A DNA stretch of 64,000 bases from Candidatus Poribacteria bacterium (GTDB lineage Bacteria; Poribacteria; WGA-4E; WGA-3G). The stretch lies in NCBI GenBank assembly GCA_026702755.1, contig JAPPBX010000049.1, positions 12,057-76,056 of the forward strand, in the 5' to 3' direction. Shown piece by piece: positions 9,702 to 52,875 of the stretch (position 1 is the stretch's first letter; each line of letters opens with the position of its first letter). The translations under genes were made by a program, and so were the position numbers. Under the pieces are notes generated by a model that did no database searches, was not told where the DNA came from, and worked only from the letters and a program-made list of their open reading frames with translations.

Positions 9702-9829
9702 GTGAGCGCATTACGTTAAACACAGATTCTCTGTTCATTTTTTACGCGGATCGGGTATAATAATAACAAGACCTACGTAAATTGAGAAAATATCGGACAT
9801 TCAGACGCAAAAAATCGGTAACGTATTTA

Positions 9830-9908
9830 AACCCCCTAAATCCCCCAACCCCCCATATCCCCCCTTATCAGGGGGGCAGGGACTTTAAGAGGAAATGCGT
9901 AAGTCCTA
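9830..9908. repeat. interspersed repeat family 2 copy
   Basis: ACCCCCTAAATCCCCCAACCCCCCATATCCCCCCTTATCAGGGGGGCAGGGACTTTAAGAGGAAATGCG, about 90% identical to 5523..5600. Confidence 0.7.
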
Positions 9909-9984
9909 AATAAGTATAAAATAGAGTGTTTCGTTTTTGGTAAGGATTTCATCAAACAACAATCAAGAAAAAGGAGTTCGACCC

Positions 9985-10547: not shown

Positions 10548-10765
10548 GTACCATAGGTGTCTATTTAGGGATTTTTCGCTGTATTTTATAGGCCCGTCTT
10601 TACAAATGCCGCCCCTACAGGGCTTAGATTTTTTGGTCCACACGCTGCTATAAACATTTCGTCCCTACGGGACTGAAGAGGGTTTCTGGCGTGTACAAAG
10701 TTCATGGCTAAAACCCGGCGCAGTTAGAATGCAGGTCGCATTTGGGCGTGTACGCCGCAAAACAG
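10548..10765. repeat. repeat family 1 copy (diverged) followed by a shared 30-mer, TCGCATTTGGGCGTGTACGCCGCAAA
   Basis: Aligns to 3301..3400 (ACAGGTGTCAATTTAAGGATTTTTCACGGTATTTTGTAGG and related). The 30-mer also occurs at 6944..6975. Confidence 0.6.
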
Positions 10766-10974
10766 TGCCTACCGGATCTGAGACTACAACGGTCATTTGC
10801 TCTAAAATTGACAGTTATGGTGCGTTTACACAGCGTACCTATGAGGCATTTATATCGGACCCCAGTGAGTTAAAGCAGATGTTTGGGAAATATATAAAAA
10901 CAGAGAAATCATATAACGACAATTCTTAAGTCCAAAACGACTTATTGCGCGTAATTATTTATACACCAACACAA

Positions 10975-11065
10975 GGGCGAGGATACAATCCTCGCGAGCG
11001 GCGGCGAGGAGTTTGTTCCCTGACGAACTGTAACATATTTTCGGATTTTACTATAAAGAACACTC
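10975..11065. repeat. interspersed repeat family 3 copy
   Basis: GGCGAGGATACAATCCTCGCGAGCGG ... TTTTCGGATTTTACTATAAAG. Confidence 0.6.
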
Positions 11066-16289: not shown

Positions 16290-16437
16290 AGTCGGAGTCG
16301 CAATTTAAAAAAAGAAATTGAGAATTGACATTCCACAACTTGTGTGCTATCTTTAATGACTAACGCCTTGGCAATTGGCAACGCTTGAATGTCTCCAAAC
16401 GGAAAAAGACAACGAAATGAAATAAGGAGAAGAGATA

Positions 16438-19053
16438 ATGCGATATCTACTGACATTTTGGATCTGTTTAACCCTAATAAGTGGTTATTGCCTATCAGTT
16501 TCTGCGCAGGAAGCAGCACAACCCGCGGCACAAGCAGCACCCGCAAAAAAGAAAAAAGAGTTTGAAGATTTTTCAAAAATTACTGAAGACAGCAAAAGCT
16601 ACCAAGGTTTTTTCAAACTATACGAAAAAAAAGAGAATCTCTATTGTGAAATACAACCCTCACAATTAGACAAACCTTTTCTGTGCATGATTAGTCTTTC
16701 ACGCGGTTTAGCGCGAGGTCGCCTTATTTCTGGAATGACGATGGAAGAGTGGCTGCTCGTCTGGCGGCGTGTCGGCGACAAGGTGCACCTCGTGCGAAAA
16801 AACGTACGTTTCCGCGCTGATAAAGGGACACCGACCGCACAATCCGTTGACTACAGCTACAGCGATTCTGTGCTCTTCTCTCTCAAGATTGAAAGTATAC
16901 ACCCACAACGAGGCAGTCTATTGGTGAATATTTCGCCTGTCTTTATGTCTGACCTACCACCGTTAGCAGGTAGTATTGGCGGAGGTGCCCGTTTTGACAA
17001 AACGCGTAGCACTTGGGGAAAAATCAAAGCATTCCCGAAGAACGTTGAATTGAGAGTTGAAGCGGTATACGCATCGAACAGCTATATAACAACGGTTCCT
17101 GACAGTCGCGGTATCCAGTTGACGTTGCACTATAGTCTCGCTGAACTTCCATCAAACAACTACCGCCCGCGGCTTGCTGATGACCGGGTCGGACATTTCA
17201 TGACAACCGTCAAGGACTACTCGCTTCAAACCAGCGATGCGCCGTATATTCGTTACGTCAATAGATGGCATTTAGAGAAAGCGGACAAAAAGGCGAAACT
17301 TTCGCCACCAATGGATCCAATCATTTTCTATATTGAGAAAACAGTACCACATCGTTTCCGTCCGTACATTCGTCAAGGGATCCTGGAATGGAACAAGGCG
17401 TTTGAAAAAGCAGGATTTGTTGACGCAATAGAAGCACGGATCCAACAAGATTATGAGGATTGGGACCCGGAAGACGCACGGTATAACACGATTCGTTGGG
17501 TTGTTGATGCGGGTTTCGCTATTGGTCCGTCCCGCGTGAATCCATTGACGGGTCAGATATTGGATGCCGATATCCTTATCAGCGACGGCTTCATCAGATC
17601 CTGGCAGCGGGAGTATTCGACGTACTTTGATGAACTCGATCATGAACGGGACCACCCGATGGATCACTCCTCACGGTTCCATTGTCAGATGGCATCCGGA
17701 TTGGCACGCCAGATGGGGTTCATGGCGAGCGTTCTGCAGGCGCGGGGTGTGGTCGGTGAAGACGGCGAATTGCCGGAAGCGTTTATCGGTCAGGCACTTA
17801 AAGCACTGACGATGCACGAAGTTGGACATACGTTGGGGTTGCGTCACAACTTTAAAGCGAGTACGATACATTCGCTTGATGACTTGAACAAGAAAAGCGA
17901 TGAAGCACTCCTCGGCTCCGTAATGGAATACGACGCTGTGAACATTGCCCCTGAAGGTAAAAAACAGGGCGATTACTATACAACAACAATTGGGCCCTGG
18001 GACTACTGGGTGATCGAGTATGCCTATAAATCGATCAATGCGAGTAACCCTGAAGGTGAACTAAAGGAGTTGGGCAAGATCGCTTCCCGTGTCGCAACAC
18101 CAGGACTGACGTACGGCACAGACGGCGATGCGTCCTCATATCAATATAGGGATTTGGACCCGCTGGTTAATCGGTGGGACCTCGGTTCGGATCCGCTCGA
18201 TTTTGCCAAACAACGTCGCGAGATTGTCGTTGAACTCTGGGACAAGATTGCTGACAAAGTTGCAAAAGAAGGGATGGGTTATCAGCGTGTCAGGCGTGCC
18301 TTCGGGTCCCTGCTTGGTGAACACGGTTATTCCATGTACCTTGCAAGCCGTTATATCGGCGGGCAGTATCACCATCGCGATCATCGTGGCGATGAGAATG
18401 GACGTTTACCCTTCGTGCCTGTTCCGGCGGCGAAACAACGCGAGGCACTTGAGTTCCTCAAAGAACATGCGCTCTCGGACAAAGCCTTCGATTTTCCTCC
18501 TGATTTACTCAACAGTCTCGCTGTCACACGTTGGAGCGACTGGGGCTCCGGGACCGGGGGGTCTACACGTTTGGATTATCCGGTGCATACTGTCATCCTA
18601 CGCAATCAGACCCGCATTTTGGGACGCTTGCTCTATCCGAATGTGCTTGCCCGCGTTCAGGACACAGAGTTGAAGTTTCCTGAGGGTGAAGACGCGTTTA
18701 CACTACCAGAACTCTTCTCAGGTATTACGGATGCGGTTTGGACAGAACTGGATCGGAATGTCGGAGAAAAGCAGTGGTCGAATACGGATGCATTCATCTC
18801 CAGTTTCCGGCGCGCGTTGCAACGTGAACACTTGAAGCAACTCATCAAATTGATACTGGATGCGGATAGTGGAACGCCTGAGGATGCAAGGTCGCTTGCT
18901 CGACATCATCTCGGACAAATCAATACTCGGATACAAGGCGTGCTTCAGAATGCCCAAGGGAGACTTGACGACTATAGCTTGGCACACCTCCAAGAATCGC
19001 AAGTCCGAGTCGCGAAGGCGTTGGATGCCAGTTTCCAAGTCCAGAAGCGTTAA
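16438..19053 (+). CDS. secreted zinc-dependent metalloprotease, 871 aa (DUF4953/DUF5117-like), tandem copy 1
   Basis: Signal peptide. MHEVGHTLGLRHNF zinc-binding HExxHxxGxxH motif followed by SVMEY. AAGGAG ribosome-binding site. Confidence 0.8.
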   Translation: MRYLLTFWICLTLISGYCLSVSAQEAAQPAAQAAPAKKKKEFEDFSKITEDSKSYQGFFKLYEKKENLYCEIQPSQLDKPFLCMISLSRGLARGRLISGMTMEEWLLVWRRVGDKVHLVRKNVRFRADKGTPTAQSVDYSYSDSVLFSLKIESIHPQRGSLLVNISPVFMSDLPPLAGSIGGGARFDKTRSTWGKIKAFPKNVELRVEAVYASNSYITTVPDSRGIQLTLHYSLAELPSNNYRPRLADDRVGHFMTTVKDYSLQTSDAPYIRYVNRWHLEKADKKAKLSPPMDPIIFYIEKTVPHRFRPYIRQGILEWNKAFEKAGFVDAIEARIQQDYEDWDPEDARYNTIRWVVDAGFAIGPSRVNPLTGQILDADILISDGFIRSWQREYSTYFDELDHERDHPMDHSSRFHCQMASGLARQMGFMASVLQARGVVGEDGELPEAFIGQALKALTMHEVGHTLGLRHNFKASTIHSLDDLNKKSDEALLGSVMEYDAVNIAPEGKKQGDYYTTTIGPWDYWVIEYAYKSINASNPEGELKELGKIASRVATPGLTYGTDGDASSYQYRDLDPLVNRWDLGSDPLDFAKQRREIVVELWDKIADKVAKEGMGYQRVRRAFGSLLGEHGYSMYLASRYIGGQYHHRDHRGDENGRLPFVPVPAAKQREALEFLKEHALSDKAFDFPPDLLNSLAVTRWSDWGSGTGGSTRLDYPVHTVILRNQTRILGRLLYPNVLARVQDTELKFPEGEDAFTLPELFSGITDAVWTELDRNVGEKQWSNTDAFISSFRRALQREHLKQLIKLILDADSGTPEDARSLARHHLGQINTRIQGVLQNAQGRLDDYSLAHLQESQVRVAKALDASFQVQKR

Positions 19054-19142
19054 GTGCTTGTACGTTTCGGTCAGGATTTTCATAAAACCCAACTACTTTC
19101 TGGCGGGGTTGATGAAGATTAAGAATTTAATTTGGTAATGTA

Positions 19143-19180
19143 GGGGCAGGCACAAGACCTGCCCCTACAATCATTTTCCT
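19143..19180 (+). terminator. hairpin GGGGCAGGCACAAGACCTGCCCC downstream of copy 1 (terminator-like; weak T-tract)
   Basis: 8-bp perfect stem. The same hairpin recurs at 24592 and a variant at 45620. Confidence 0.4.
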
Positions 19181-19279
19181 CAAGGATATTACCGAAATAT
19201 TTATTTAAACTTCATCAAACCCCGCCAACCTCAGTAAGTTTTCGCTTGTCAGCTGCACCCAAAATCAGGAGAAAAAATA

Positions 19280-21898
19280 GTGCGACCTCTATTCACTTTT
19301 TGGATCTGTTTAACGCTAATATGTAGTTATTGCCTTTCGGTAGCTGCTCAGGAAGCAGCACAACCCGCAAAACCCGCAACACAGGAAACACCTAAAAAAA
19401 CAAAAAAAGAGTTCCAAGATTTCGCAAAGGTAACTGAAGACAGCAAAAGCTACCAAGGCTTTTTCAAACTCTACCAGAAGAAAGAGAACCTCTATTGCGA
19501 GATACAACCCGCACAACTGAACCAGCCTTTTTTATTTTTGATTACGATTTCAGGCGGTATGGGGAACAACTTCCTCGCCGCAGGGGAGATCTGGGATCAG
19601 TGGCTGCTTGCTTGGCGACGTGTCGGCGACAATGTGCATCTCGTGCGAAAAAACACCCGTTTCCGCGCTGATAAAGGGACACCGACCGCACAAGCCGTTG
19701 CGTATGGTTATAGTGACTCTGTGCTATTTTCTCTCAAGATTGAAAGTATCCATGCACAACGGAAAAGCCTTTTGGTAAACATTTCACCCGTTTTCATCTC
19801 CGATCTACCCCCCTTGGCACGCTATATTGGTGGTGCTTTCGACAAAACGCGTAGCACTTGGGGAAAAATCAAGGCGTTCCCAAAGAATGTCGAGTTGAAA
19901 GTCAAAGCCGTCTACACATCAACACGCTACATAGAGGCTGTCCCCGATAGTCGTGGGATTCAGTTGACGCTGCATTACAGCCTCGCGAAACTCCCAGAAA
20001 ACAACTATCGTCCTCGGTTGGCTGACGACCGGCTTGGGCACTTTATGACAGCGATCAAAGACTATTCACTTCAAACCAGTGATGCCCCCTTCACCCGCTA
20101 TGTCCAGCGATGGCATCTGGAGAAGGCAGACAAAAAAGCGAAACTTTCACCGCCGAAAAAACCGATTATCTTTTACATCGAGAAAACGGTGCCACACCGC
20201 TACCGTCCCTACATCCGACAAGGGATTCTCGAATGGAACAAGGCGTTTGAAAAGGCAGGCTTTGTCGATGCAATTGAGGCACGCATTCAACAAGATTATG
20301 AAGATTGGGATCCCGAAGACGCACGCTATAATACGATCCGTTGGATTGTCGGTGCAACTTTTGGGTATGGTCCATCCCGCGTGAATCCACTCACAGGCGA
20401 GATCTTGGATGCCGATATCCTTTTGGGTGACGGTTGGATCAGATACTGGCAGCAAGATCACAGAACCTTCTTTGATAAACTGGCGTATGAACGCGATCAT
20501 CCGATGGATCACACTTCACACTTTCGGTGTCAGATGTCATCCGGCTTGGCACATCAGATGAACCTCATGGCGAGTGTGTTGCAGGCGCGTGGTTTGACAG
20601 ATGAAGGCGGTGAACCATCAGAAGTTTATGTCGGGGAAGCAATGAAATTATTGGTGATGCATGAAGTAGGACATACGTTAGGGTTACGTCACAACTTTAA
20701 AGCGAGTACAATACTCTCCCTTGAAGAACTGAACACGAAAAAAGACGAACCCCTCTACGGTTCCGTCATGGAATACGAAGCCGTGAATATCGCTCCCGAA
20801 GGCGAAAAGCAAGGACATTTCTTTTCACCGACAGTCGGTCCTTGGGATGACTGGGTGATCGAGTATGCCTATAAACCGATCGACGCAAGCAAACCTGAAG
20901 ATGAATTGGAAGCGTTGGGTAAAATCGCTTCCCGTGTCGCAGCACCGGAACTCACTTACGGCACAGATGAAGATGTTTACGGCTATCAATACCGTAATCT
21001 GGATCCGCTGGTAAATCTTTGGGATCTGGGTGCCGACCCATTTGAGTTCGCCAAACAACGGCGCGAGATCATCGTTAAACTTTGGGAGAAAATTGCGGAC
21101 AAGGTTATAAAAGAGGGGATGGGCTATCAACGTGTCCGGCGAGCCTTCGAGACCCTACTCTATGAACATGAGAGTGCGATGTATCTCGCAAGTCGCTATA
21201 TCGGCGGGCAGTATCACCATCGCGATCACCGCGGCGATGAAAATGGACGTTTACCCTTCGTGCCAGTTCCGGCGGCGAAACAACGCGAAGCACTCCAATT
21301 CCTGAAAGAATACGCCCTTTCCGACAGTGCCTTCGATTTTCCACCCGATCTACTTAACAGCCTCGCTGTCACGCGTTGGAGCGATTGGGGATCAAGTAGC
21401 GGTGGTTCCACACGTTTGGACTACCCCGTGCATCAGGTCATCCTATGGAATCAAACCTTTATCTTGGAACGGCTGCTTTATCCGAATGTTCTCGCGCGGA
21501 TTCAGGACACAGAATTGAAGTTTCCCAAAGGTGAAGATGTGTTCACACTGCCTGAACTCTTTTCAGGTATCACGGACGCGGTCTGGGTAGAACTCGATCG
21601 GAATGTCGGCGAAAAGCAGTGGTCGAATACCGATGCTTTCATTTCCAGTTTCCGGCGCGGGCTGCAGCGGGAACACCTCAAGCAGCTTATCAAACTGGTG
21701 TTGGATGCCGACAGTGGCACCCCCGAAGATGCGCGATCCCTCGCACGCCTACATCTCGAAGAAATCAACACGCAGATACAAGGTGTGCTTCAGAATGCCC
21801 AAGGGAGACTCGATGATTATAGTCTGGCGCACCTCAAAGAGTCGCAAGTTCGCGTCGCGAAGGCGTTGGATGCAAGTTTTCAAGTTCAGAAACGTTAG
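19280..21898 (+). CDS. secreted zinc-dependent metalloprotease, 872 aa, tandem copy 2 (GTG start)
   Basis: Same architecture and LVMHEVGHTLGLRHNF motif. Starts with GTG after a CAGGAG ribosome-binding site. Confidence 0.8.
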   Translation: MRPLFTFWICLTLICSYCLSVAAQEAAQPAKPATQETPKKTKKEFQDFAKVTEDSKSYQGFFKLYQKKENLYCEIQPAQLNQPFLFLITISGGMGNNFLAAGEIWDQWLLAWRRVGDNVHLVRKNTRFRADKGTPTAQAVAYGYSDSVLFSLKIESIHAQRKSLLVNISPVFISDLPPLARYIGGAFDKTRSTWGKIKAFPKNVELKVKAVYTSTRYIEAVPDSRGIQLTLHYSLAKLPENNYRPRLADDRLGHFMTAIKDYSLQTSDAPFTRYVQRWHLEKADKKAKLSPPKKPIIFYIEKTVPHRYRPYIRQGILEWNKAFEKAGFVDAIEARIQQDYEDWDPEDARYNTIRWIVGATFGYGPSRVNPLTGEILDADILLGDGWIRYWQQDHRTFFDKLAYERDHPMDHTSHFRCQMSSGLAHQMNLMASVLQARGLTDEGGEPSEVYVGEAMKLLVMHEVGHTLGLRHNFKASTILSLEELNTKKDEPLYGSVMEYEAVNIAPEGEKQGHFFSPTVGPWDDWVIEYAYKPIDASKPEDELEALGKIASRVAAPELTYGTDEDVYGYQYRNLDPLVNLWDLGADPFEFAKQRREIIVKLWEKIADKVIKEGMGYQRVRRAFETLLYEHESAMYLASRYIGGQYHHRDHRGDENGRLPFVPVPAAKQREALQFLKEYALSDSAFDFPPDLLNSLAVTRWSDWGSSSGGSTRLDYPVHQVILWNQTFILERLLYPNVLARIQDTELKFPKGEDVFTLPELFSGITDAVWVELDRNVGEKQWSNTDAFISSFRRGLQREHLKQLIKLVLDADSGTPEDARSLARLHLEEINTQIQGVLQNAQGRLDDYSLAHLKESQVRVAKALDASFQVQKR

Positions 21899-21948
21899 AC
21901 CGAATTTACAACGTGAAAGTAAATAATGTAAAATAAGGAGAAAATTCA

Positions 21949-24564
21949 ATGCAACGCCAATTGACTTTTTGGCTCTGTTTAATTCTAATCAGCAGTTGTT
22001 ACCTGCCGATATTCGCACAACAAGCAGCACAACCCGCAACACAAGAAGCACCCACGAAACCAAAAAAAGAGTTCCCAGACTTCTCGAAAGTTATCGAGGA
22101 TAGCAAAAGCTACCAAGGTTTTTTCAAACTATACCAGAAAAAAGAGAATCTTTATTGTGAGATACAACCCGCACAATTGAACCAACCCTTTCTATGCATG
22201 ATTAGTCTTGCGCGCGGCTTAGGGAGAGGATCCCTTATCTCTGGGATGACGATGGATGAGTGGCTGCTGGTCTGGCGACGCGTTGGCGACAACGTGCATC
22301 TCATGCGAAAAAATGTGCGTTTCCGCGCTGATAAAGGGACACCGACCGCACAGGCGGTTGACTACGGTTATAGTGACTCTGTGCTGTTCTCTCTTAAGAT
22401 TGAAAGTATCCATCCACAACGGAAAAGCCTTTTGGTAAATATCTCACCTGTTTTTGTATCCGATCTACCGCCTTTGGCACGTAGGATCGCCCCAGATGCG
22501 CGCTTCGACAGAACGCGCAGCACTTGGGGAAAAATCAAGACATTCCCAAAGAATGTGGAGTTGAAAGTTAACGCGGCGTACACCTCGTCAAGTTATATAG
22601 AAACTGTGCCCGACAGTCGTGGGATTCAATTGACGCTGCACTATAGCCTCGCGAAACTTCCATCGAACAACTACCGTCCTCGGTTGGCTGACGACCGGCT
22701 TGGACACTTTATGACAACAATCAAAGATTACTCGCTTCAAACCAGCGATGCGCCGTATATCCGTTACGTCAATCGATGGCATCTGGAGAAAGCAGACAAA
22801 AAGGCGAAACTCTCACCTCCGATGGATCCGATCATTTTCTACATTGAGAAAACGGTGCCGCACCGGTTTCGTCCGTACATTCGCCAAGGGATCCTGGAAT
22901 GGAACAAGGCATTTGAAAAGGCAGGCTTTGTCGATGCAATTGAGGCACGTATTCAACAAGATTACGAGGATTGGGACCCCGAAGATGCCCGCTATAACAC
23001 GATCCGCTGGGTTGTTGACGCAGGCTTCGCGATTGGTCCGTCCCGCGTGAACCCGTTGACAGGACAGATATTGGATGCCGATATTCTTATCAGCGACGTT
23101 TTTATCAGAAGTTGGCAGCGACAGTATAAAACATACTTTGATGAGTTAGCACACGAGCGCGATCATCCGATGGATCACACCTCACACTTTCAGTGTCAAC
23201 TGGCATCTGGATTGACACGTCAGATGGGGTTCATGGCGAGCGTCTTGCAGGCACGCGGTCTGACGGGCGAAGACGGTGAATTACCAGAAAAATTTATCGG
23301 CGAGGCACTGAAAACACTGACGATGCATGAGGTCGGTCACACATTGGGATTACGTCACAATTTTAAATCGAGTACGATATACTCTCTTGACGATCTGAAC
23401 GACAAAACAGACGAGGCAACCGTCGGTTCCGTCATGGATTACTGGGGCGTGAATGTTGCTCCCGAAGGTAAAGAACAGGGACATTACTATACGCCGACGG
23501 TTGGTCCTTGGGATTATTGGGTCGTCGAGTATGCCTATAAACCGATTGCTGCAAGTAACCCTGAAGGTGAATTGGAGGCATTGGGTAAAATCGCCTCCCG
23601 TGTCGCAACACCGGAACTTACCTACGGAACAGATGGCGATGTTTACAGCTATCAATACCGTAATCTGGATCCGCTGGTAAATGTTTGGGATCTGGGTGCC
23701 GACCCGCTTGAGTTTGCCAAACAACGGCGAGAAATTGTCGTTAACCTTTGGGACAAAATTGCGGATAAGGTCACAAAAGAGGGGATGGGCTATCAACGGG
23801 TCCGACAGGCATTTGGGAGATTGCTTGGTGAACATGCGAATGCGATGTACTTTGCAAGCCGATATATCGGTGGGCAGTATCACCATCGCGATCATCGCGG
23901 TGATGAAAATGGACGTTTACCTTTTGTGCCGGTTCTCGCAGCGAAACAACGCGAAGCACTCCAATTCCTCAAAGAACACGCCCTCTCGGACAAAGCCTTC
24001 GATTTCTCGGCTGACCTACTCAACAGTCTCGCTGTCACGCGTTGGAGTGATTGGGGATCAAGTAGTGGGAGTTCTACGCGTTTGGATTATCCCGTGCATC
24101 AGATCATTCTGAACAATCAAACCTTTATCTTGGGACGACTGCTTTATCCGAATGTTCTGGCGCGGATTCAGGACACAGAGTTGAAGTTTCCTAAGGGTGA
24201 AGATGTGTTCACACTGCCAGAACTCTTTTCAGGTATCACGGACGCTGTCTGGGTAGAACTTGATCGGAATGTCGGCGAAAAGCAGTGGTCGAATACCGAT
24301 GCTTTCATTTCCAGTTTCCGGCGCGGTTTGCAGCGGGAACACCTCAAGCAGCTTATCAAACTGGTGTTGGAGGCTGATAGTGGCACCCCGGAGGATGCAA
24401 GGTCGCTCGCACGCCTACATCTCGAAGAAATCAACACGCAGATACAAGGCGTACTTCAGAATGCGCAAGGGAGACTTGACGATTATAGTTTAGCACACCT
24501 CGAAGAATCGCAGGTCCGAGTCGCAAAGGCTCTGGATGCGAGTTTCCAAGTTCAGAAACGGTGA
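21949..24564 (+). CDS. secreted zinc-dependent metalloprotease, 871 aa, tandem copy 3
   Basis: Same architecture. LTMHEVGHTLGLRHNF. AAGGAG ribosome-binding site. Only 50 bp after copy 2. Confidence 0.8.
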   Translation: MQRQLTFWLCLILISSCYLPIFAQQAAQPATQEAPTKPKKEFPDFSKVIEDSKSYQGFFKLYQKKENLYCEIQPAQLNQPFLCMISLARGLGRGSLISGMTMDEWLLVWRRVGDNVHLMRKNVRFRADKGTPTAQAVDYGYSDSVLFSLKIESIHPQRKSLLVNISPVFVSDLPPLARRIAPDARFDRTRSTWGKIKTFPKNVELKVNAAYTSSSYIETVPDSRGIQLTLHYSLAKLPSNNYRPRLADDRLGHFMTTIKDYSLQTSDAPYIRYVNRWHLEKADKKAKLSPPMDPIIFYIEKTVPHRFRPYIRQGILEWNKAFEKAGFVDAIEARIQQDYEDWDPEDARYNTIRWVVDAGFAIGPSRVNPLTGQILDADILISDVFIRSWQRQYKTYFDELAHERDHPMDHTSHFQCQLASGLTRQMGFMASVLQARGLTGEDGELPEKFIGEALKTLTMHEVGHTLGLRHNFKSSTIYSLDDLNDKTDEATVGSVMDYWGVNVAPEGKEQGHYYTPTVGPWDYWVVEYAYKPIAASNPEGELEALGKIASRVATPELTYGTDGDVYSYQYRNLDPLVNVWDLGADPLEFAKQRREIVVNLWDKIADKVTKEGMGYQRVRQAFGRLLGEHANAMYFASRYIGGQYHHRDHRGDENGRLPFVPVLAAKQREALQFLKEHALSDKAFDFSADLLNSLAVTRWSDWGSSSGSSTRLDYPVHQIILNNQTFILGRLLYPNVLARIQDTELKFPKGEDVFTLPELFSGITDAVWVELDRNVGEKQWSNTDAFISSFRRGLQREHLKQLIKLVLEADSGTPEDARSLARLHLEEINTQIQGVLQNAQGRLDDYSLAHLEESQVRVAKALDASFQVQKR

Positions 24565-24591
24565 ATGCTCGGACGTTTCGGTCAGTAATTG

Positions 24592-24628
24592 CGGGCAGGC
24601 ACAAGACCTGCCCCTACAATGTTTTTTA
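24592..24628 (+). terminator. rho-independent terminator-like hairpin (GGGCAGGCACAAGACCTGCCC followed by TGTTTTTTAC)
   Basis: Perfect stem plus downstream T-tract, just after the copy 3 stop. Confidence 0.55.
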
Positions 24629-24860: not shown

Positions 24861-24980
24861 TTGGGATTACCGATTTAAATAATTAAACTTCATACAGTTT
24901 GTGGTACAAAAACACCGCCCATCGCAAAGCAAAACGCGCAATGAATTGCGCTACTACAAACAAAAACTTAGGAGGAACGG

Positions 24981-25913
24981 ATGGAAATTCTTCAATATAC
25001 GCCCGATATGCAAGCATCCTTAACCCAATTTTATAATCACTTGACCGTCGATGTTCCGCACTGTTATCCAGTCAAGGAGGAAGAATTTGCTATTGCGGTA
25101 CGTGAGGTTACGACCGATAAATCAGATGTAAAGGACGGAGGTCTTGACTCGGAAACTGCCTTTGTTGCAATGGTGAACGGTGCTGTGCAAGCGTTTATTC
25201 ATATCGGCATCGGTCAGGTCTGGAATCACGAGGAAAGGAAAGAGAACGCTGGCATTATTCGGTTTCTTGGTTACGAACGCGGGGCGCGGCAAGTTGGGCA
25301 AGCCGTGCTTGAAAAGGCGGAAGATTATCTGAAAACTTATGATATTTCTCAGATTTTCGCCTTTTCACAGGACTGCCGATACCGCTTCTATCATTTTGCA
25401 CACGCCTATCTATCGGACGCGCTTGATCAAGTTCAAGGCCTCCTTGGATATAATGGATACCACCGTTCCAATGGCGAGGTCTTTCTGGATTGGGAAGACT
25501 ATTCCGTTACACCAGTACCTTCAAATCTGCCGGTAACGCTTTCTATCGACTGGAAGGACGGGCGTGGACAACTCCCGAATTGTACTGTGCTCGCCCACCA
25601 AGACGGCGAACAGGTCGGCATCTGTGAGTCCCTCTGCGGTGGTGAGTTCTCAAGCCACGCCGATGCACAAAACTGGCTTCATACTGTCTGGCTCGGTATT
25701 GAAGATGATTTTCAGGGACAGGGTTTGGGACGCTATCTGCTTCAATACGCGCTTCAAGAGATGAAGAAAATCGGATACCAACATGCAGCGATTAGCACTG
25801 CTTGGGATAACCACCGCGCGTTCCTCTTTTATAGCAACTGCGGTTATTGGACCGTAGATTGGACTTATGAATTCGTCAAAGACCTCTCCAAAGCACCAAC
25901 GGAAAAGTGGTAA
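24981..25913 (+). CDS. GNAT-fold acyltransferase-like protein, 310 aa (paralog A)
   Basis: AGGAGG ribosome-binding site. C-terminal QGQGLGRYLLQYALQEMKKIGY...FYSNCGY resembles GNAT motifs A and B. Confidence 0.6.
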   Translation: MEILQYTPDMQASLTQFYNHLTVDVPHCYPVKEEEFAIAVREVTTDKSDVKDGGLDSETAFVAMVNGAVQAFIHIGIGQVWNHEERKENAGIIRFLGYERGARQVGQAVLEKAEDYLKTYDISQIFAFSQDCRYRFYHFAHAYLSDALDQVQGLLGYNGYHRSNGEVFLDWEDYSVTPVPSNLPVTLSIDWKDGRGQLPNCTVLAHQDGEQVGICESLCGGEFSSHADAQNWLHTVWLGIEDDFQGQGLGRYLLQYALQEMKKIGYQHAAISTAWDNHRAFLFYSNCGYWTVDWTYEFVKDLSKAPTEKW

Positions 25914-26035
25914 CCTCAGATTCAGACAATCAGCACGACCTTAAAGGCAGCATCTCACTTCTCGTTTTCTGGGTGGAAGTGGGGACGGAGCAATTCTGCT
26001 GTGAGATGTTCCGTAAAAGGAGAGTAGAAAAAGAG

Positions 26036-26950
26036 ATGGAAATTTTACAATATACACCCGACATGCAAGCACCTCTCACCCAATTTTATAATCGCTTGAT
26101 CACCGATGTTCCGCATTGCTACCCTGTAACGGAGGGAGAATTTGCTATTGTACTACGCGGGGTTACGACTGGTAAAGCCGACAAAGATGACTTTGGACGT
26201 GGACTCGACTCCGAAACTGCCTTCGTCGCGATGACGGAGGGTGCAGTGCAGGCGTTTATTCACGTCGGTCTCACTCAGATGAGAGATGAGGATGTAGGTA
26301 TTATTCGGTTCTTGGGCTACGAACGTGGGGCACGGCGCGCTGGACAAGCCGCCCTTGAAAAGGCGGAAACCTATCTGAAATCATTTAATGTAACCCGAAT
26401 TTTCGCTGCCGAGCGTCGATATCGTTTCTATCATTTTGAATACGCCTGTCTATCGGATGCACTTGATCAGGTTCAAGGACTCCTTGGATTCAACGGATAC
26501 CACCGTTCCAACGGATGGGTCTTTTTAGACTGGGAAAACTACGATGTTACACCAATACCGGCACCTATACCGGTAACGCTTTCTGTAGAGTGGAAGGACG
26601 AACGCGGACAACGTCCAGATAGCGTCATAAAAGCCTATCAAGGTGATGAAGAGATTGGCTTATGTGTATCTGTCTCTGGTGGTGAGTATTCGGACCACCC
26701 GGATGCACAGGATTGGTTCCATACGGTTTATCTTGAGATTGAAGGTGAGTTTCAAGGACAGGGGTTAGGACGCTACCTGCTCCAATACGCACTTCAAGAG
26801 ATGAAGAAAATCGGATACCAGCACGCAACAATCAGCACGCGCTGGGATGATTATCGCGCACTTCTCTTTTACAGCAACTGCGGTTATCGGGTTGCAGATT
26901 GGACCTACGCCTATGAAAAAGTGCTCTCTGAACCGCCAACGCCCAATTAA
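26036..26950 (+). CDS. GNAT-fold acyltransferase-like protein, 304 aa (paralog B)
   Basis: Start moved to the ATG at 26036 with an AAGGAG ribosome-binding site (the ORF-track start at 25907 lacks one). Collinear with paralog A throughout. Confidence 0.6.
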   Translation: MEILQYTPDMQAPLTQFYNRLITDVPHCYPVTEGEFAIVLRGVTTGKADKDDFGRGLDSETAFVAMTEGAVQAFIHVGLTQMRDEDVGIIRFLGYERGARRAGQAALEKAETYLKSFNVTRIFAAERRYRFYHFEYACLSDALDQVQGLLGFNGYHRSNGWVFLDWENYDVTPIPAPIPVTLSVEWKDERGQRPDSVIKAYQGDEEIGLCVSVSGGEYSDHPDAQDWFHTVYLEIEGEFQGQGLGRYLLQYALQEMKKIGYQHATISTRWDDYRALLFYSNCGYRVADWTYAYEKVLSEPPTPN

Positions 26951-31288: not shown

Positions 31289-31295
31289 CCAAGAA

Positions 31296-31330
31296 ACCCC
31301 CTAAATCCCCCTTATCAGGGGGACTTGCAA
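31296..31330. repeat. short copy of repeat family 2
   Basis: AACCCCCTAAATCCCCCTTATCAGGGGGACTTGCAA. Confidence 0.55.
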
Positions 31331-34655: not shown

Positions 34656-34726
34656 AAGGTATTCTCCAATTCGTGTTTAGTAGGACTTACGCAATTTTCT
34701 ATGAATCCTATATATTACGTGCAGCT

Positions 34727-34790
34727 GGCGAGGTTACAAACCTCGCCAGCGAAGGGGCTGCGTAACTCGTGTTTAGGTGAGGTCCCTATT
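34727..34790. repeat. repeat family 3 copy
   Basis: GGCGAGGTTACAAACCTCGCCAGCGAAGGGGCTGCG. Confidence 0.55.
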
Positions 34791-38866: not shown

Positions 38867-39154
38867 ATGATCCTTGGAAAAGTGACCGGGACAATCGTCG
38901 CGACGCAGAAAGATGAAAAATTGATCGGAAGCAAGCTGATGGTTGTCCAAGATGTAAACCTGGACGGAGACGTTGATCGGAAATATACAGTCGCTGTAGA
39001 TGCGGTAGGTGCTGGCATCGGTGAAATCGTCCTTATCGCCACCGGTAGTTCCGCTCGACAGACCGCAGTGACGAGCAATAAACCGGTTGACGCTGTAATC
39101 ATGGCGATTGTTGATACCGTGGAAGTCGCTGGAAAAGTCAGGTATCAAAAGTAG
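38867..39154 (+). CDS. bacterial microcompartment vertex (pentamer) protein, EutN/CcmL/PduN family
   Basis: MILGKVTGTIVATQKD..LIGSKLMVVQ....VAVDAVGAGIGEIVLIATGSSARQ matches the conserved EutN_CcmL blocks. 95 aa. Confidence 0.8.
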   Translation: MILGKVTGTIVATQKDEKLIGSKLMVVQDVNLDGDVDRKYTVAVDAVGAGIGEIVLIATGSSARQTAVTSNKPVDAVIMAIVDTVEVAGKVRYQK

Positions 39155-39735: not shown

Positions 39736-40122
39736 CTATTTGACATCAACGAAAGGTCTCAATTTCTCCAGCGTCTTTGCACCAATCCCCTTGACTTTCT
39801 GGAGAGCATCTACACTGGTGAAGTTCCCGTGCTGTGTGCGGTAGTCAATAATTTTTTGTGCCATCTCCGCGCCGATATTTGGAAGCGTTTGGAGTTCTTC
39901 GGCAGAGGCGGTGTTGATATTAAGAAGTGCGGGTTTACTGGGTATTACCCGGCTTTGTGGACGTTCCTCATTTGGACCAACGATCAGATCTGGTTTTCCG
40001 AGGAAGATCGCAGGTGCGAACCGTCTCACACCCCAAAAACCGGTCCCAGCCAAAATCAGTACCACGAGAAAAACGACAGCTTTCCAATAATGGCGTTCAA
40101 TAGTATCCGATACGCTATTCAT
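39736..40122 (-). CDS. ComEA-like helix-hairpin-helix DNA-binding protein
   Basis: N-terminal membrane anchor. LNINTASAEELQTLPNIGAEMAQKIIDYR...GIGAKTLEKL tandem HhH. Confidence 0.75.
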   Translation of the reverse strand: MNSVSDTIERHYWKAVVFLVVLILAGTGFWGVRRFAPAIFLGKPDLIVGPNEERPQSRVIPSKPALLNINTASAEELQTLPNIGAEMAQKIIDYRTQHGNFTSVDALQKVKGIGAKTLEKLRPFVDVK

Positions 40123-40589
40123 CTCTCACATCACCTCCTTCAATTCACGCAGTTTGATAACTACCTCTTGAAATCTTTGCTTCCAATTTTGAAAAAAATG
40201 AAAATTATTTATCAGTATACTACATTTTCACGCGCTGTCAAGTGACGAACCTTTGGTAGACAAATAACCTTGCATTCCTCTACCAAATGTGGTGTACTAC
40301 TTAAACCAGTTTTGGGTGGCATTGCTACGAGATGGTATCTCAACACCGTTCTCTGCTACCCTTCCACCGTAGGTAGCAAGTGGATAACGGACTGTGGATT
40401 GGAAAACCTTAAAATGGAGTACACGATGAACTTTGAGAACCGATGACAACGACGAGATCCGCTGCCGGTAAACTGCACAGAACATTTTGTGACGCGAGAG
40501 TCAATTATATCCGCTGCTTTCCTGATTTATACTCAATTTTTATTTGCCATTTCACATTATGTATGGTATTGTATGTATCGGAATAATTT

Positions 40590-41042
40590 ATGGTAAACGC
40601 TCAGAAAGTCATATATTCAGATCAGGAAATAGAAGAATTTGTACAAGAACGCAAGATTTTGCCAGATGATTGGTATAGTAGACTGATTAGACGAAATAAA
40701 GAGAAGGGAGAATTGACTGTCATAGGCGATAAAGGGAATGAGTTCCGAATCATTGTCAGACCAGACGACCTTGTGCCTTTAGATTTTTCAGTTATTTTGG
40801 TAGTTGTTACTAAATCAAACCCAAATTTTAAACTCCGGCGCTACAATGGGCGGACCAGTGGGCACAGAAACCGGATTGAGAAAGAAAGAATTGAAGGGTT
40901 TCATATTCATTACGCTACAGAGCGGTATCAACGGAGAGGATTAAAGGAAGAAGCTTATGCGCTACCAACGGATCGCTATAACAGCTACGAGGGTGCCCTT
41001 CGCTGCTTAATCAAAGATGCGAATTTTGTGGAACCGCTGTAA
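40590..41042 (+). CDS. hypothetical protein, 150 aa (AT-rich cassette gene 1)
   Basis: ORF in a locally AT-rich block. No family recognised. Confidence 0.45.
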   Translation: MVNAQKVIYSDQEIEEFVQERKILPDDWYSRLIRRNKEKGELTVIGDKGNEFRIIVRPDDLVPLDFSVILVVVTKSNPNFKLRRYNGRTSGHRNRIEKERIEGFHIHYATERYQRRGLKEEAYALPTDRYNSYEGALRCLIKDANFVEPL

Positions 41043-41069
41043 CAGGTACTTTTTTTCGGGGAGTAAGCA

Positions 41070-41852
41070 ATGTCTGCCAATACCATACAACAAGACTTTA
41101 TTAATAAGGTCTCCGCACAGATAAGTCTTTCAGCAGATGGTAAAGACCGTTTCCGGGTATTAACGCCCTTCCAATTCGAGGATGGTGATGAATTAGTTAT
41201 CGTCCTAAAGAAGGAGAGTGAACGGTGGCTGCTCTCCGACGAATCGCATACCTACAGGCACCTCGCCTACGATATTGATGAGAAACTTCTTTATAGCGGT
41301 GCACGCTGGAAACTTATCTCTAAAGCCCTTTCTATGTTTGAGGTTGAAAACCGCAGTGGAGAATTAATACTTGATGTATCGGATGAGCGTTACGGTGAAG
41401 CACTATACGACTTCGTTCAAGCTCTTCTCAAGATAACGGATGTGTCATATTTGTCAAGGGACCGAGTTCAATCCACATTTATGGAAGATTTCCATGAACT
41501 CTTACATGAAAAGGTGAAAACGACGCGCATGGCATTTGAATGGCATGATAAGGATCGTGATCCGCAAGCAAATTATAAAGTAGATTGTCTAATTAATGGG
41601 ATGCCGGAGTCTCTTTTTGTGTATGCTCTTGCCAATGATAATAAAACACGTGATGCTACAATCTCGATTCACCAATTCAAAGAGTGGGGTATATCTTTTA
41701 GGTCCGTAGGAATTGTCAAGGATGAGAAGGCTACGAGTCGCAAAGTGCTTGCCCGTTTCCGAGATGTGTGTGATGCGTGTTTTGTTGACCTAAAAAAAAG
41801 CGGTAAAGACATCAGACAATATCTGGATAATAATATCTCTTTACCTTCGTAA
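41070..41852 (+). CDS. hypothetical protein, 260 aa (AT-rich cassette gene 2; possibly DUF1828/DUF1829-like)
   Basis: 27 bp after gene 1, same strand. No catalytic motif recognised. Confidence 0.45.
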   Translation: MSANTIQQDFINKVSAQISLSADGKDRFRVLTPFQFEDGDELVIVLKKESERWLLSDESHTYRHLAYDIDEKLLYSGARWKLISKALSMFEVENRSGELILDVSDERYGEALYDFVQALLKITDVSYLSRDRVQSTFMEDFHELLHEKVKTTRMAFEWHDKDRDPQANYKVDCLINGMPESLFVYALANDNKTRDATISIHQFKEWGISFRSVGIVKDEKATSRKVLARFRDVCDACFVDLKKSGKDIRQYLDNNISLPS

Positions 41853-42070
41853 ACTATCGCGCGGTAGCATGCGTCACTAACTGGGCAATTTCGATTGGCG
41901 TTGAAAGTGTACCCGTTTAATAATACGTCTGGCAAAGCTGGTAAAGGTAAATAATGTGCCGCGGTTCGTGACTATAGCGTTTTAGAGTGTGTATGGCAGC
42001 TTACGGTTAAACATACCGTAGGCTGCCATTTTTTTTGTTCTTATCCGCAGTGTGAAAACTGACCTACCCC

Positions 42071-42270
42071 GACAACCCCCTAACCCCCCTTATCAGCGGA
42101 ATAAGAAGTCGGGAGGGTTATTCTGAGATGTTTCTTCTGATGCATTTATAGATGCCGCCCCTACGGGGCTTAGGTTTGGGGTGTACTGTTTTTCTACACA
42201 GATGTCACCCCTACGGGGTTGAAGAGGATGGGCGAGGTTGGAAAACTCGCCTACCGAGTGTAGAGTGAAA
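42071..42270. repeat. degenerate repeat family 2 copy plus partial repeat family 1 copy
   Basis: CCCCCTTATCAGCGG at about 42085. GATGCCGCCCCTACGGGGCT at about 42151. GATGTCACCCCTACGGGGTTGAAGAGG at about 42203. GGCGAGGTTGGAAAACTCGCCTACCGAG end module. Confidence 0.6.
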
Positions 42271-49605: not shown

Positions 49606-51075
49606 TCAATTGTCCTGTGGTTTCTCAATATCTTGATGTTTTTGCTCGGTCTGTTTTCCGACATCTGGATTTAGTTCCCTAGCTTTTTCATAGTCAACTC
49701 GTGCTTCTTCTTGCAATCCGAGTGCCTGCTTTACCAGACTGCGGCTGTAGTAGGCGAGTGCACAATCCGGTTTGAGGTTGATAGTTTCAGTATAATCCTC
49801 TATAGCATCACGATAGTGGCTTTCTGTCTGCTCCATATTCCCCTGATCCGTTTCCAATTTACCGAAGTAAAATTTTGCATCACCACGATTTCTGTAAGTA
49901 TCGGTATCCTCCGGTTCAAGCAAAAGTTTCGCGTAATGGCGCATTAGAGAATCCTCGGCATACTCCGCTGAATTTAATCTAAGGGCTTCAGTACAATCGT
50001 CAATCGCTGCACAGTAGTACTCTTGTGCTTGCTCTTGGTCGCCTTGGGAGGCTGCGGATTGCGCCAGTTTAGTTTTCGTATAACCGCGATTACTATAGGC
50101 ACCTGCATACTCTGAGTTAAGTTTGATGGCTTTATTAAAGTCTGCAATCGCCTCGTTATAGTAGTTCAGTGCCTGTTCCACATTTCCCTTAGCCACCTCA
50201 GATTCACCTAATTTAGTCTTCGCATAACCGAGAATTCTGTCATCCTGTCCTAAACCTTCTTCCGCGTCGAGTTTGTTAGCTGTATTAAAGTCTGCAACAG
50301 CTTCGTGATAATAATGTTGTGCTTCCTCTGCGTTTTCCTTGACTTCTTCAAATTGGCCGAGATGTAACTTTGCAAGACCGCAAATTCCGTAAGCAGCAGC
50401 AAACTCCGGATTTAGCTCAACGGTTTTATCAAAAGCATCTATCGCTTCAGCATGGGCACCATGAAGAAATTTGAATTGTCCTTGAGCGTAGTAAGTATAG
50501 GCACGTATAGGATCTTTTTTCCGAAACTGTGCTAAAGGTTCGGTTAACTCCGATTGAGAAAGCAATACCTTGAGAGCGTTTGAGGGAACAGCAACACCGT
50601 AAGTTCCTGTGCTGCCAGCAGCAACACCTATAACTTCACTTTTACTGTTGAGCATAGGACCACCACTCATGCCCCCCACATACTCAGCGTCCACCCAAAA
50701 CTTTTTGCTGTCACCGCGGATACCCTGTATGATTCCGGTTGTGACCTTGTATTCAGTTTCTGGGAAACCTAAAGTAAAAACTCGTTCGCCGATCTGAACA
50801 GCGTCACTGTTCCCAAGTGGAAGAGGTTTACCTTCAGCCAACACCTTTAAGATAACCAAGTCATTTTTAAGATCAAACGTTGTTACACCGTCTACTTCCC
50901 ACACGGTTTCTCCATCAACTGACTTCGCAGAAACCAGTCCCTCCCCATAAACAGCATGGATGTTGGTAACAACCTTTTCAGGTTCTACAAAGAATCCACT
51001 ACCGACACCAACGAGTTTTCCCGATTCCGCCTCAATCGAGCGGATTTGTACAATAGATTCTCCGTTATGTTTCAT
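49606..51075 (-). CDS. trypsin-like serine protease with TPR repeats (paralog 3, no signal peptide at chosen start)
   Basis: Triad contexts TNIHAV, NDLVILK and GGMSGGP. Long TPR C-terminus. Start set at MKHNGES to avoid a 150 bp overlap with the upstream gene. Confidence 0.7.
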   Translation of the reverse strand: MKHNGESIVQIRSIEAESGKLVGVGSGFFVEPEKVVTNIHAVYGEGLVSAKSVDGETVWEVDGVTTFDLKNDLVILKVLAEGKPLPLGNSDAVQIGERVFTLGFPETEYKVTTGIIQGIRGDSKKFWVDAEYVGGMSGGPMLNSKSEVIGVAAGSTGTYGVAVPSNALKVLLSQSELTEPLAQFRKKDPIRAYTYYAQGQFKFLHGAHAEAIDAFDKTVELNPEFAAAYGICGLAKLHLGQFEEVKENAEEAQHYYHEAVADFNTANKLDAEEGLGQDDRILGYAKTKLGESEVAKGNVEQALNYYNEAIADFNKAIKLNSEYAGAYSNRGYTKTKLAQSAASQGDQEQAQEYYCAAIDDCTEALRLNSAEYAEDSLMRHYAKLLLEPEDTDTYRNRGDAKFYFGKLETDQGNMEQTESHYRDAIEDYTETINLKPDCALAYYSRSLVKQALGLQEEARVDYEKARELNPDVGKQTEQKHQDIEKPQDN

Positions 51076-52011: not shown

Positions 52012-52875
52012 TCATTCGTTTTCATTTTCGCTGTTGACGAGTTGTGCCTGAAGGCGTTCTAACTCAGCCTCCACAGTCTGTCGCCGTTCCGTTTCCTCTC
52101 TGGCGAGTCTTTCTGCCACCTGTCGCCGTTCTGCTTCTTCTCTGGCGAGTCTTTCTGCCACCTGTCGCCGTTCTGCTTCTTCTTCTATCAACGTTTCCGC
52201 TGCCACTCGTAGGTGATGTTCTTCCATAGAAGTTGTAATCGGGGTTCCATCAGGGAGATAGGGACGTAACAGCCGCAGCTCCCACGCCTCATGCAGCTCC
52301 CACCGAAAATAAAGATTTAATGACGCACTGAACAAACCATCATCAGCATCTTCTTCAATCTCAACGATGTCGCCTAATGCATCCCGTCGCCACCCACGAA
52401 ATTCTATAGGGCGATTCATATCGGGTTGATGAATGAAATACTCCGCAACCCCCATATCACGCAGATACACCTCAACTTTTTCATGCCGGTCCTCAGACGC
52501 TGTTGTATCTGAAAGGAACTCAAAAACTGCTGTAGGGACGGTGCCTTCTGCCCAGGTATAAAAACTCCTTCGTAACGGAAGTTTCGGGGCACCGAGGGCG
52601 ACATACACATCGGGAGCCACGACCTTTCTGATATCGCCTTCTCGGTAATAGATAAAGTTGTCCATACCGACATGGATATACGGGTGTGCCTGAAAATATC
52701 GTAAGAATTGGTCAAATAAGCTATGCATCTGCATCCCGTGAAATTCGCCTGCTGGCATAGGTTCATCGTCCTCATAAGGGTAGCCTTGGATGTAAACGGT
52801 CGGTTTTCCACTCGCTTTTGGAAAGACAGGCATATACTTTCTTTGCTTGAGTTCAAAATCGTTTAGCGTCTTCAT
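52012..52875 (-). CDS. Uma2 family (DUF820) nuclease-like protein with C-terminal coiled-coil tandem repeat
   Basis: PDVYVALG...AVFEFLSDTT...KVEVY Uma2-type PD-(D/E)xK pattern. C-terminal (AERRQVAERLAREE)x2.5 encoded by a 39-bp tandem repeat at about 52063..52190. Confidence 0.55.
   Translation of the reverse strand: MKTLNDFELKQRKYMPVFPKASGKPTVYIQGYPYEDDEPMPAGEFHGMQMHSLFDQFLRYFQAHPYIHVGMDNFIYYREGDIRKVVAPDVYVALGAPKLPLRRSFYTWAEGTVPTAVFEFLSDTTASEDRHEKVEVYLRDMGVAEYFIHQPDMNRPIEFRGWRRDALGDIVEIEEDADDGLFSASLNLYFRWELHEAWELRLLRPYLPDGTPITTSMEEHHLRVAAETLIEEEAERRQVAERLAREEAERRQVAERLAREETERRQTVEAELERLQAQLVNSENENE

Follow-up and report, generated by a model that had tools for sequence, protein, structure and literature searches.

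A mobile two-gene operon of Candidatus Poribacteria as a probable divergent member of the candidate cassette PDC-M24

What does a short, AT-rich pair of genes do for Candidatus Poribacteria, and is it native or acquired? The question is raised by a stretch of 64 kb of Candidatus Poribacteria DNA (the window, that is, the whole stretch analysed, to which the positions given below refer), in which an initial annotation had singled out two adjacent genes as a small horizontally acquired island. These genes, A and B, together form the cassette considered here; L-numbers (L001, L004 and so on) denote the homologous or matching loci and contigs with which it was compared. Both open reading frames (ORFs) lie exactly where that annotation had placed them. 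On sequence grounds, the cassette is best seen as a divergent member of PDC-M24, a candidate that has already been catalogued, and not a new kind of system. Taken as a whole, it is probably a self-contained mobile operon of ~1.4 kb that most likely serves in defence against phages or mobile DNA. The elements of the locus are the following:

40590..41042, plus strand: gene A, ATG start, 150 amino acids (aa), intact (ORF list)
41070..41852, plus strand: gene B, ATG start, 260 aa, intact (ORF list)
40505..40589, plus strand: conserved upstream block with a promoter-like site and a short leader, which travels with the cassette
40544-40572, plus strand: promoter-like site TTGCCA-17-(TG)TATTGT, with an extended TG, facing gene A (promoter scan)
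41058..41063, plus strand: GGGGAG ribosome-binding site of gene B, in the A-B spacer of 27 nucleotides (nt) (sequence inspection)
41853..41920, plus strand: conserved tail at the 3' end of the mobile block; relatives are homologous up to ~41915-41925
41993..42039, plus strand: intrinsic-terminator-like hairpin and T-run, with a 15-bp stem and 8 G-C pairs, locus-specific
40214..40241, minus strand: promoter-like site TTGACA-16-TATACT, 11/12 matches, facing comEA
39736-40122, minus strand: comEA ORF, with an HHH_3 domain

The pair stands out by its composition. With a guanine plus cytosine (GC) content of 0.413 and 0.418, versus 0.482 for the window, A and B are overall the two most GC-poor of 48 long ORFs; their GC at third codon positions (GC3; 0.387 and 0.396) is the 3rd and 4th lowest of the 48 (mean 0.489, standard deviation 0.051), and their codon-usage distances rank 2nd and 9th. 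The segment 40460-41900 has a GC of 0.416 (z = -2.7), and equally low values occur in 1.3% of segments of the same size; the lowest-GC span of 2,131 nt in the whole 64 kb starts at 40051. The AT-richness first remarked upon is thus real.

Gene A is preceded by a gap (40123-40589; 467 bp, GC 0.396) that contains no credible gene, as had been reported for some 450 bp: its short ORFs (at most 62 aa) have no Pfam match, its Rfam matches are no better than E 0.6 (range 0.6-1, which is noise) and there are no tRNA genes in the window. A noncoding RNA or a tRNA attachment site was rejected on these last two grounds. A decayed methyltransferase gene was likewise rejected, as the N6_N4 methyltransferase that L001 has at this place, used as tblastn query against the window, gave no match in 40123-40589. 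What the gap does carry, according to the promoter scan, is two divergent promoter-like sites. The site that faces comEA is on the host side of the intergenic region, outside the cassette, and the one that faces gene A belongs to the upstream block, which is almost invariant in L001, L004, L007 and L008 despite their unrelated flanks. The string quoted in the initial annotation (40541-40577) is part of this conserved promoter block. On the other side, 3' of gene B, the terminator-like hairpin itself spans 41993-42029.

A perfect 12-nt inverted repeat pairs 40560-40571, in the -10 region of the promoter of A, with 41078-41089, in codons 4-7 of B. Among the relatives, the two nearest, L007 and L008, are the only ones to have kept it; in L025, the position holds an 11-mer complementarity that is unrelated to it. 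A role as a regulatory element is unsupported (~0.14 chance matches are expected in the region, by our own estimate), and the repeat probably reflects chance or recent inheritance.

The distribution of the pair speaks of mobility. In a scan that took one genome per species (185,579 species genomes), relatives of A were found at 328 places, and 80 loci were fetched. The pair is scattered over at least 10 phyla: the fetched loci come, among other lineages, from Poribacteria, Latescibacterota, Acidobacteriota, Gammaproteobacteria, Spirochaetia, Acidimicrobiia, Chloroflexota, Planctomycetota and Deltaproteobacteria, and from one archaeon, Methanoregula. In 82 of 86 loci, the gene that immediately follows A on its own strand is B, and in the other four the contig ends at A; wherever the order could be checked (82 of 82 loci and the three viral contigs that carry the pair), A comes before B. 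The two genes are separated by 27 nt in the window and mostly by -4 to +13 nt in the other loci, a spacing that suggests translational coupling.

The closest relatives (L004, L007 and L008; Poribacteria, 81-87% identity) have only ~40460-41900 in common with the window, and no flanking gene. In DNA alignments, the conserved block runs from ~40505-40520 to ~41915-41925 and includes ~75 almost invariant nt of promoter and leader. The ratio of nonsynonymous to synonymous substitution rates is 0.13-0.25 for both genes among these close copies, which corresponds to purifying selection. In 78 of 79 loci, the cassette is AT-shifted with respect to its flanks (mean -6.4 GC points, p = 1.5e-14), and its GC tracks that of the host (r = 0.87, slope 0.76). 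Three genuine phage or prophage contigs from IMG/VR, and no others there, contain the pair, which is intact and stands next to genes for a portal, terminase, primase, endolysin, integrase or methyltransferase. With B as tblastn query, neither 72,556 plasmids nor 50,697 phage genomes from public deposits yielded a match.

Horizontal acquisition, already proposed in the initial annotation, is supported by the unshared flanks at 81-87% identity, the patchy distribution over phyla, the phage contigs, the AT shift in 78 of 79 loci and an alternative cargo at the same site (see below). The opposite outcome considered there, core genes with conserved synteny, was not encountered, as synteny is not conserved even at 81-87% identity. 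The pair is an obligate, conserved, mobile two-gene operon.

Where the pair is inserted gives the first indication of its role. Neighbouring ORFs were clustered and annotated with Pfam, and loci were assigned to classes over 84 loci (one locus being a duplicate). The recurrent neighbours are:

HsdM: 25 loci, upstream of the pair
HsdS: 25 loci, directly upstream of the pair
HsdR: 18 loci, downstream of the pair
YgjP-like peptidase: 19 loci, downstream of the pair
DUF499: 8 loci, downstream of the pair
DUF1156 methyltransferase: 6 loci, downstream of the pair
SNF2-NOV_C helicase: 7 loci, directly upstream of the pair
DUF6079 (BrxC-like): 6 loci, directly upstream of the pair
946-aa N6_N4 methyltransferase: 6 loci, downstream of the pair

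The pair lies inside methylation-based defence operons in 41 of the 84 loci, namely: (i) type I restriction-modification (R-M) operons (27 loci); (ii) Hma-like operons, defined by DUF499, the DUF1156 methyltransferase and SNF2-NOV_C (8 loci); and (iii) operons with BrxC-like DUF6079 and a methyltransferase (6 loci). The order hsdM-hsdS-A-B-hsdR-ygjP recurs in ~17 loci (e.g. L006 and L039), and embedded pairs are co-directional with the operon, their stops and starts overlapping or abutting those of their neighbours. Among the remaining 43 loci, some adjoin mad2, pAgo/SIR2, HerA, SAVED, PD-Lambda-1 or methyltransferase genes and many stand among housekeeping genes. The copy in the window, which has comEA, 5-formyltetrahydrofolate (5-FTHF) cyclo-ligase, EutN, a flavin adenine dinucleotide (FAD) oxidase, a lipoprotein, Ldh_2 and cobA/hemD as neighbours, is a solo insertion, intact and with its own promoter-like block. 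A cognate methyltransferase, as expected of a type II R-M system, is absent from beside it, and tblastn revealed no remnant upstream.

A DNA methyltransferase stands directly beside the pair at L095 9948-11590, on a phage contig, and at L001 3391-4869, on a Poribacteria chromosome; in the latter, the enzyme is of the N6_N4 kind and carries a fused NA-iREase1 domain. These two cases hint that some copies travel with a methyltransferase.

The second indication comes from comparison with catalogued systems. Protein B matches the PADLOC models of PDC-M24B (PDLC04539, E 8e-21, residues 3-148; PDLC04540, E 1.6e-16, residues 25-206), whose profile lengths of 255 and 256 positions are near the 260 aa of B. 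The PDC-M24A models PDLC04536 or PDLC04538 are weakly matched by 6 of 43 members of the A family (E 4e-4 to 5e-3). PDC-M24 is the candidate cassette CAS_00098 (FAM_00129>>FAM_00065, count 153), one of 145 "guilt-by-embedding" candidates listed without assay (Payne et al., bioRxiv 10.1101/2024.01.29.577857). Like the window pair, it comprises two genes, A followed immediately by B in the same orientation, and it was found through its embedding in BREX, DISARM or type I R-M, a pattern like the one recovered here independently. Unlike PDC-M24, the window copy is solo and not embedded, and the branch to which it belongs comes mainly from uncultivated lineages (Poribacteria, Latescibacterota, Acidobacteriota). 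PADLOC would probably not call the window locus, since its A protein falls outside the PDC-M24A models. As PDC-M24 itself is only a candidate, membership says nothing about mechanism. The suggestion that such small islands are frequent homes of phage-defence or toxin systems is therefore upheld by association, through the 41 of 84 embedded loci and the match of B to PDC-M24B.

Protein A is probably a divergent DUF6978-family protein; an identical protein is annotated as coming from a Candidatus Poribacteria metagenome-assembled genome. DUF6978 (PF22398) is matched at E <=1e-3 by 58 of 89 diverse relatives of A, and many homologs carry a precomputed PF22398 match. A profile search of the whole library with A gave 1,253 clusters at 50% identity; among the matches listed (150 of the 1,253 representative clusters), all are small proteins of ~105-260 aa, and no fusion of A to other domains was found there. 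The AlphaFold model is beta-rich and of high confidence (predicted local distance difference test, pLDDT, 92). Three histidines (H92, H105 and H107) are invariant in the 89 members, which share 33-50% identity, and K22, R57, R84, N94, E97, R112 and Q114 are near-invariant. In the model, the histidines are on neighbouring strands (80-93 and 100-108), so that a metal or catalytic centre formed by them is plausible. The fold search returned no solved or viral structural relative of A and, at sequence level, no solved-structure relative was found for either protein (best E values for the A/B searches, 0.16 and 0.086). Matches of A to methyltransferase profiles (E 0.0005-0.03) are weak and were taken as noise.

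For the larger protein, B, a DUF1828/DUF1829-like nature had been proposed, and the first half of this proposal stands: DUF1828 (PF08861) is matched with 82.9 bits against a cutoff of 22, over the full profile (1-91), and is found in all 49 relatives of B. DUF1829 (PF08862) was rejected, having no match at E <=1 in B and being detected in 0 of the 49 family members. The model of B (pLDDT 86) consists of two domains with a flexible linker between them:

residues ~1-128: N-terminal domain, DUF1828, resembling type III secretion system (T3SS) chaperones and DUF2170
residues ~136-260: C-terminal domain, PD-(D/E)xK restriction-endonuclease fold, with D140, D164, D172 and D190-x-K/R192

In the C-terminal domain, the order of secondary-structure elements in the model (alpha-beta-beta-beta-alpha-beta) is that of the PD-(D/E)xK core, and D172, on beta2, is invariant in 49 B sequences. 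The pair D190-x-K/R192 is displaced to the beta3/alpha2 boundary, with D190 present in 44 of 49 and K or R at 192 in 47 of 49. The DUF1828 domain has an invariant cluster of charged residues and histidines (R27, D38, D40, D57, E58, H60, H64, R79 and E98), which suggests ligand or metal binding and not simple chaperoning.

Putting these features together, a mechanism can be outlined. A and B would be made from one transcript and would act together as a complex. B would be the effector, its C-terminal restriction-endonuclease-fold domain cutting DNA, and the highly conserved DUF1828 domain, acidic and histidine-rich, together with A might sense the trigger or restrain the nuclease; the three invariant histidines of A would probably be a metal centre. 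Lodged between hsdS and hsdR in a type I R-M operon, the module could form a second line of defence. Solo copies, that of the window included, make up about half of the total, so that it must also work without a partner methyltransferase.

Several observations weigh against the defence reading as set out above. With regard to the proteins, the match of the window A to DUF6978 (23.3 bits, E 8.7e-5) is below the cutoff of 29.6. In B, strand beta3 (LFVYAL) has no charged residue, so that the canonical (D/E)xK is missing, and position 192 is R instead of K in 22 of 49 sequences; together with the displacement of D190-x-K192, this means that B may be an inactive restriction-endonuclease fold. Furthermore, B is acidic (isoelectric point, pI, ~5.3), which is unusual for a DNA-binding protein, and the mean column identity across phyla, 56% for A and 66% for B, is unusually high for immune proteins. 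With regard to context, the window copy sits among housekeeping genes and no methyltransferase or restriction model matched any of the 51 window ORFs. As for the link to PDC-M24, the window A has no match at E <=1 to the PDC-M24A models, and no functional study turned up in full-text literature searches for DUF1828, DUF6978 or PDC-M24.

Within the defence reading, a bolder version may be put forward, albeit tentatively and as a possibility with the odds clearly against it: the pair could be an immune module with a new mechanism, in which A, as an enzyme or sensor of a new kind, would control B, an effector with a non-canonical restriction-endonuclease fold, the two perhaps guarding type I R-M, Hma or BREX-like systems and firing when phages disable these, as PrrC does, yet being able to act alone. 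Four rival readings of the pair rank below the defence reading.

The best placed of them, in itself unlikely, is that the pair performs modification-dependent (type IV-like) restriction, B cutting modified foreign DNA directly and DUF1828 and/or A reading the modification, so that a cognate methyltransferase would not be required. The restriction-endonuclease fold of B agrees with this, and so does the frequency of solo copies without a methyltransferase, such as that of the window. Type IV enzymes are typically found beside or inside type I R-M loci, e.g. in the immigration control region of E. coli. The BrxU and GmrSD-like embedded genes count for the same idea (Payne et al., bioRxiv 10.1101/2024.01.29.577857). 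However, no known fold of a modified-base reader (SRA, EVE/ASCH, YTH, DUF262) was found, the N-terminal domain of B matching T3SS chaperones and DUF2170 instead; the catalytic motif of B is non-canonical, and the obligatory presence of A would be left unexplained.

Next comes the notion of a selfish toxin-antitoxin (TA) or addiction module with no role in defence: made up of a toxin and of the protein that neutralises it, the pair would stabilise itself and neighbouring islands. A strict, tightly coupled two-gene operon that is mobile, patchy and AT-shifted, at a locus that appears to be strain-variable, is what such a module could look like, and type I R-M operons also host TA modules, MNT-HEPN being one example. 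This reading is nevertheless improbable: neither A nor B has a recognisable antitoxin DNA-binding domain or a toxin-family match, there are 0 matches on the 72,556 plasmids, where addiction modules are common, and A and B share the same strong conservation, whereas TA pairs typically evolve fast.

It is more doubtful still that the pair is an accessory or regulator of type I R-M, Hma or BREX-like systems, active in their assembly, restriction alleviation or specificity, and that the solo copies are orphans with little function. This would account for copies that lie co-directionally within such operons and whose stops and starts overlap or abut those of their neighbours (L006, L039), for the methyltransferase directly adjacent in L001 and L095 and for the chaperone-like N-terminal domain of B. 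It fits poorly with the lack of such a partner within 10 kb in about half of the loci, with host systems of three unrelated types, with solo copies that are intact, keep all invariant residues and are under purifying selection, and with a conserved promoter block that the cassette brings along.

Finally, that A and B are ordinary core genes of odd composition, without mobility or conflict function, is very improbable: the housekeeping flanks (comEA, 5-FTHF cyclo-ligase, Ldh_2, cobA/hemD) and an AT shift that may partly stem from constrained amino-acid composition (GC slope 0.76 versus the host) are in its favour, but it is contradicted by the absence of conserved synteny at 81-87% identity, by relatives at only 328 places in 185,579 species genomes, by the occurrence in phage contigs and by a GC3 that is low as well.

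Returning to the defence reading, the pair can be set beside better-known systems. In the EcoprrI operon, the gene order is hsdM-hsdS-prrC-hsdR, and in ~17 loci the pair occupies the same hsdS-hsdR slot, co-directionally, as PrrC does. Payne et al. (bioRxiv 10.1101/2024.01.29.577857) name PrrC as the archetype of embedding. Unlike PrrC, A and B have no ABC-ATPase or anticodon-nuclease domains in Pfam, NCBIfam, PADLOC and fold searches, are two genes, are also found in Hma-like and BREX-like operons and are solo in about half of their copies. Among PD-(D/E)xK nucleases, the type II enzymes PspGI, NgoMIV, Cfr10I, AgeI and SgrAI and the nuclease domains of Can2/Card1 and NucC share only 5-14% identity with B, which differs from them in having no (D/E)xK on beta3, a displaced D190-x-K/R192 and a different N-terminal domain; it also has no cognate methyltransferase and no CARF domain. 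The N-terminal domain resembles T3SS class I chaperones (Spa15, SicP, InvB, SpcU, CesT-like) and DUF2170/3cxj proteins, and the pair has no secretion-system context. HipAD/DS-6 is a validated two-gene defence system whose DS-6B carries DUF3037 and DUF1829 (DefensePredictor, PMC13092281). Since B and its 49 relatives have no detected DUF1829 and the pair lacks a HipA-like kinase partner, HipAD/DS-6 is not a relative on present evidence.

If the cassette is a working defence system, it would be a compact (~1.4 kb) and very widely distributed addition to the prokaryotic immune repertoire, with a small subunit whose fold has no solved relative. Its branch, a divergent one found in Poribacteria and in further lineages known mostly from metagenome-assembled genomes, is only half recognised by current PADLOC models. 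The high conservation of A and B across phyla suggests a conserved molecular target, which makes their biochemical study tractable.

The insertion site deserves a closer description. Downstream of the cassette, a repeat cluster had been taken as its boundary and as a sign of acquisition. The relevant features are:

42071..42270, no strand: repeat cluster of dispersed genome-wide intergenic repeats, adjoining the cassette and outside it
42073-42100, no strand: CCCCCTTATCAG-type unit within the cluster
42145-42177 and 42191-42227, no strand: two CCCCTACGGGG hairpin units of the cluster, 50 nt apart
L089 1105-1812, also L090: alternative allele, compared with window 42197, with the divergence inside the repeat

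The cluster is real and consists of one degenerate CCCCCTTATCAGGGGG-type unit and two CCCCTACGGGG hairpin units. Both families recur in the window at ~3.4, 5.2, 5.5, 9.9, 10.6 and 31.3 kb (6 matches versus 0.49 expected for one family, 7 versus 0.00 for the other), and no direct or inverted repeats that bracket the conserved block were found. Being one-sided and genome-wide, the repeats do not bound the cassette and are no evidence of its acquisition, and their interpretation as cassette termini was rejected.

The site itself is informative. Between the lipoprotein gene and 42197, which is inside the repeat, two independent assemblies, L089 and L090, show no difference from the window; past this point, they have a different sequence, with a 109-aa ORF and further repeats in place of the cassette. 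A guess that the 109-aa ORF of L089 is a HigA-type antitoxin was dropped, as it has no Pfam match. Contig L092 stops at window 40312, so that assemblies break on both sides of the cassette. Given the different cargo at the same junction in L089 and L090, the site looks strain-variable, which for this genome means a strain-variable insertion point between comEA and the lipoprotein gene.

The window has further features that stand apart from the cassette. Dispersed hairpin repeats of the families CCCCTACGGGG, CCCCCTTATCAGGGGG and GGCGAGGATACAATCCTCGCC often co-occur between genes, and look REP-like (repetitive extragenic palindromic) or MITE-like (miniature inverted-repeat transposable element) for this genome. 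These and other repeated or paralogous elements are located as follows:

3383-3452, 5204-5290, 5417-5614, 9824-9913 and 10599-10681, no strand: dispersed repeats, intergenic hairpins
10969-11014, 31295-31322, 34720-34765 and 42073-42227, no strand: dispersed repeats, intergenic hairpins
16438-19050, 19280-21895 and 21949-24561: ~870-aa ORFs of a tandem unit
2178-2507, 4207-4434 and 50084-50167: 84-nt periodic repeats

The tandem unit, of ~2.7-2.85 kb, is present in three copies (16400-24600; 73-85% identical). Three window ORFs match the PADLOC RT-Protease_XI models (E ~1e-16) and may be the ~870-aa paralogs. Other matches in the PADLOC scan of the 51 window ORFs were single ones to Csx1 (1.6e-24), mad2 (1e-15), LmuA (3.6e-9) and PDC-M35A (2.9e-8), and two ORFs matched PDC-S03 (4e-17); all of these may be generic domain matches. 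At 38867-39154, on the plus strand and directly upstream of the 5-FTHF cyclo-ligase, a small protein of the EutN/CcmL family is encoded (Pfam E 4.5e-30); its vicinity contains no further microcompartment genes. On the minus strand, 60560-61903 encodes an RNA-guided nuclease of the TnpB type (IS200/IS605 family; phmmer against TnpB in PDB, E 7e-28; PADLOC Cas12f models, E 3e-39), which lies ~19 kb away and has no link to the cassette. A second tandem array comprises two copies of a ~1.04-kb unit (24980-26932; 74-81% identical; ORFs 24981-25910 and 25907-26947). The 84-nt periodic repeats are internal to paralogous genes at 1823-5000 and 50084-51000, which have the look of tetratricopeptide repeat (TPR) proteins, and a 42-nt tandem repeat in three copies (52078-52203) lies inside a minus-strand ORF.

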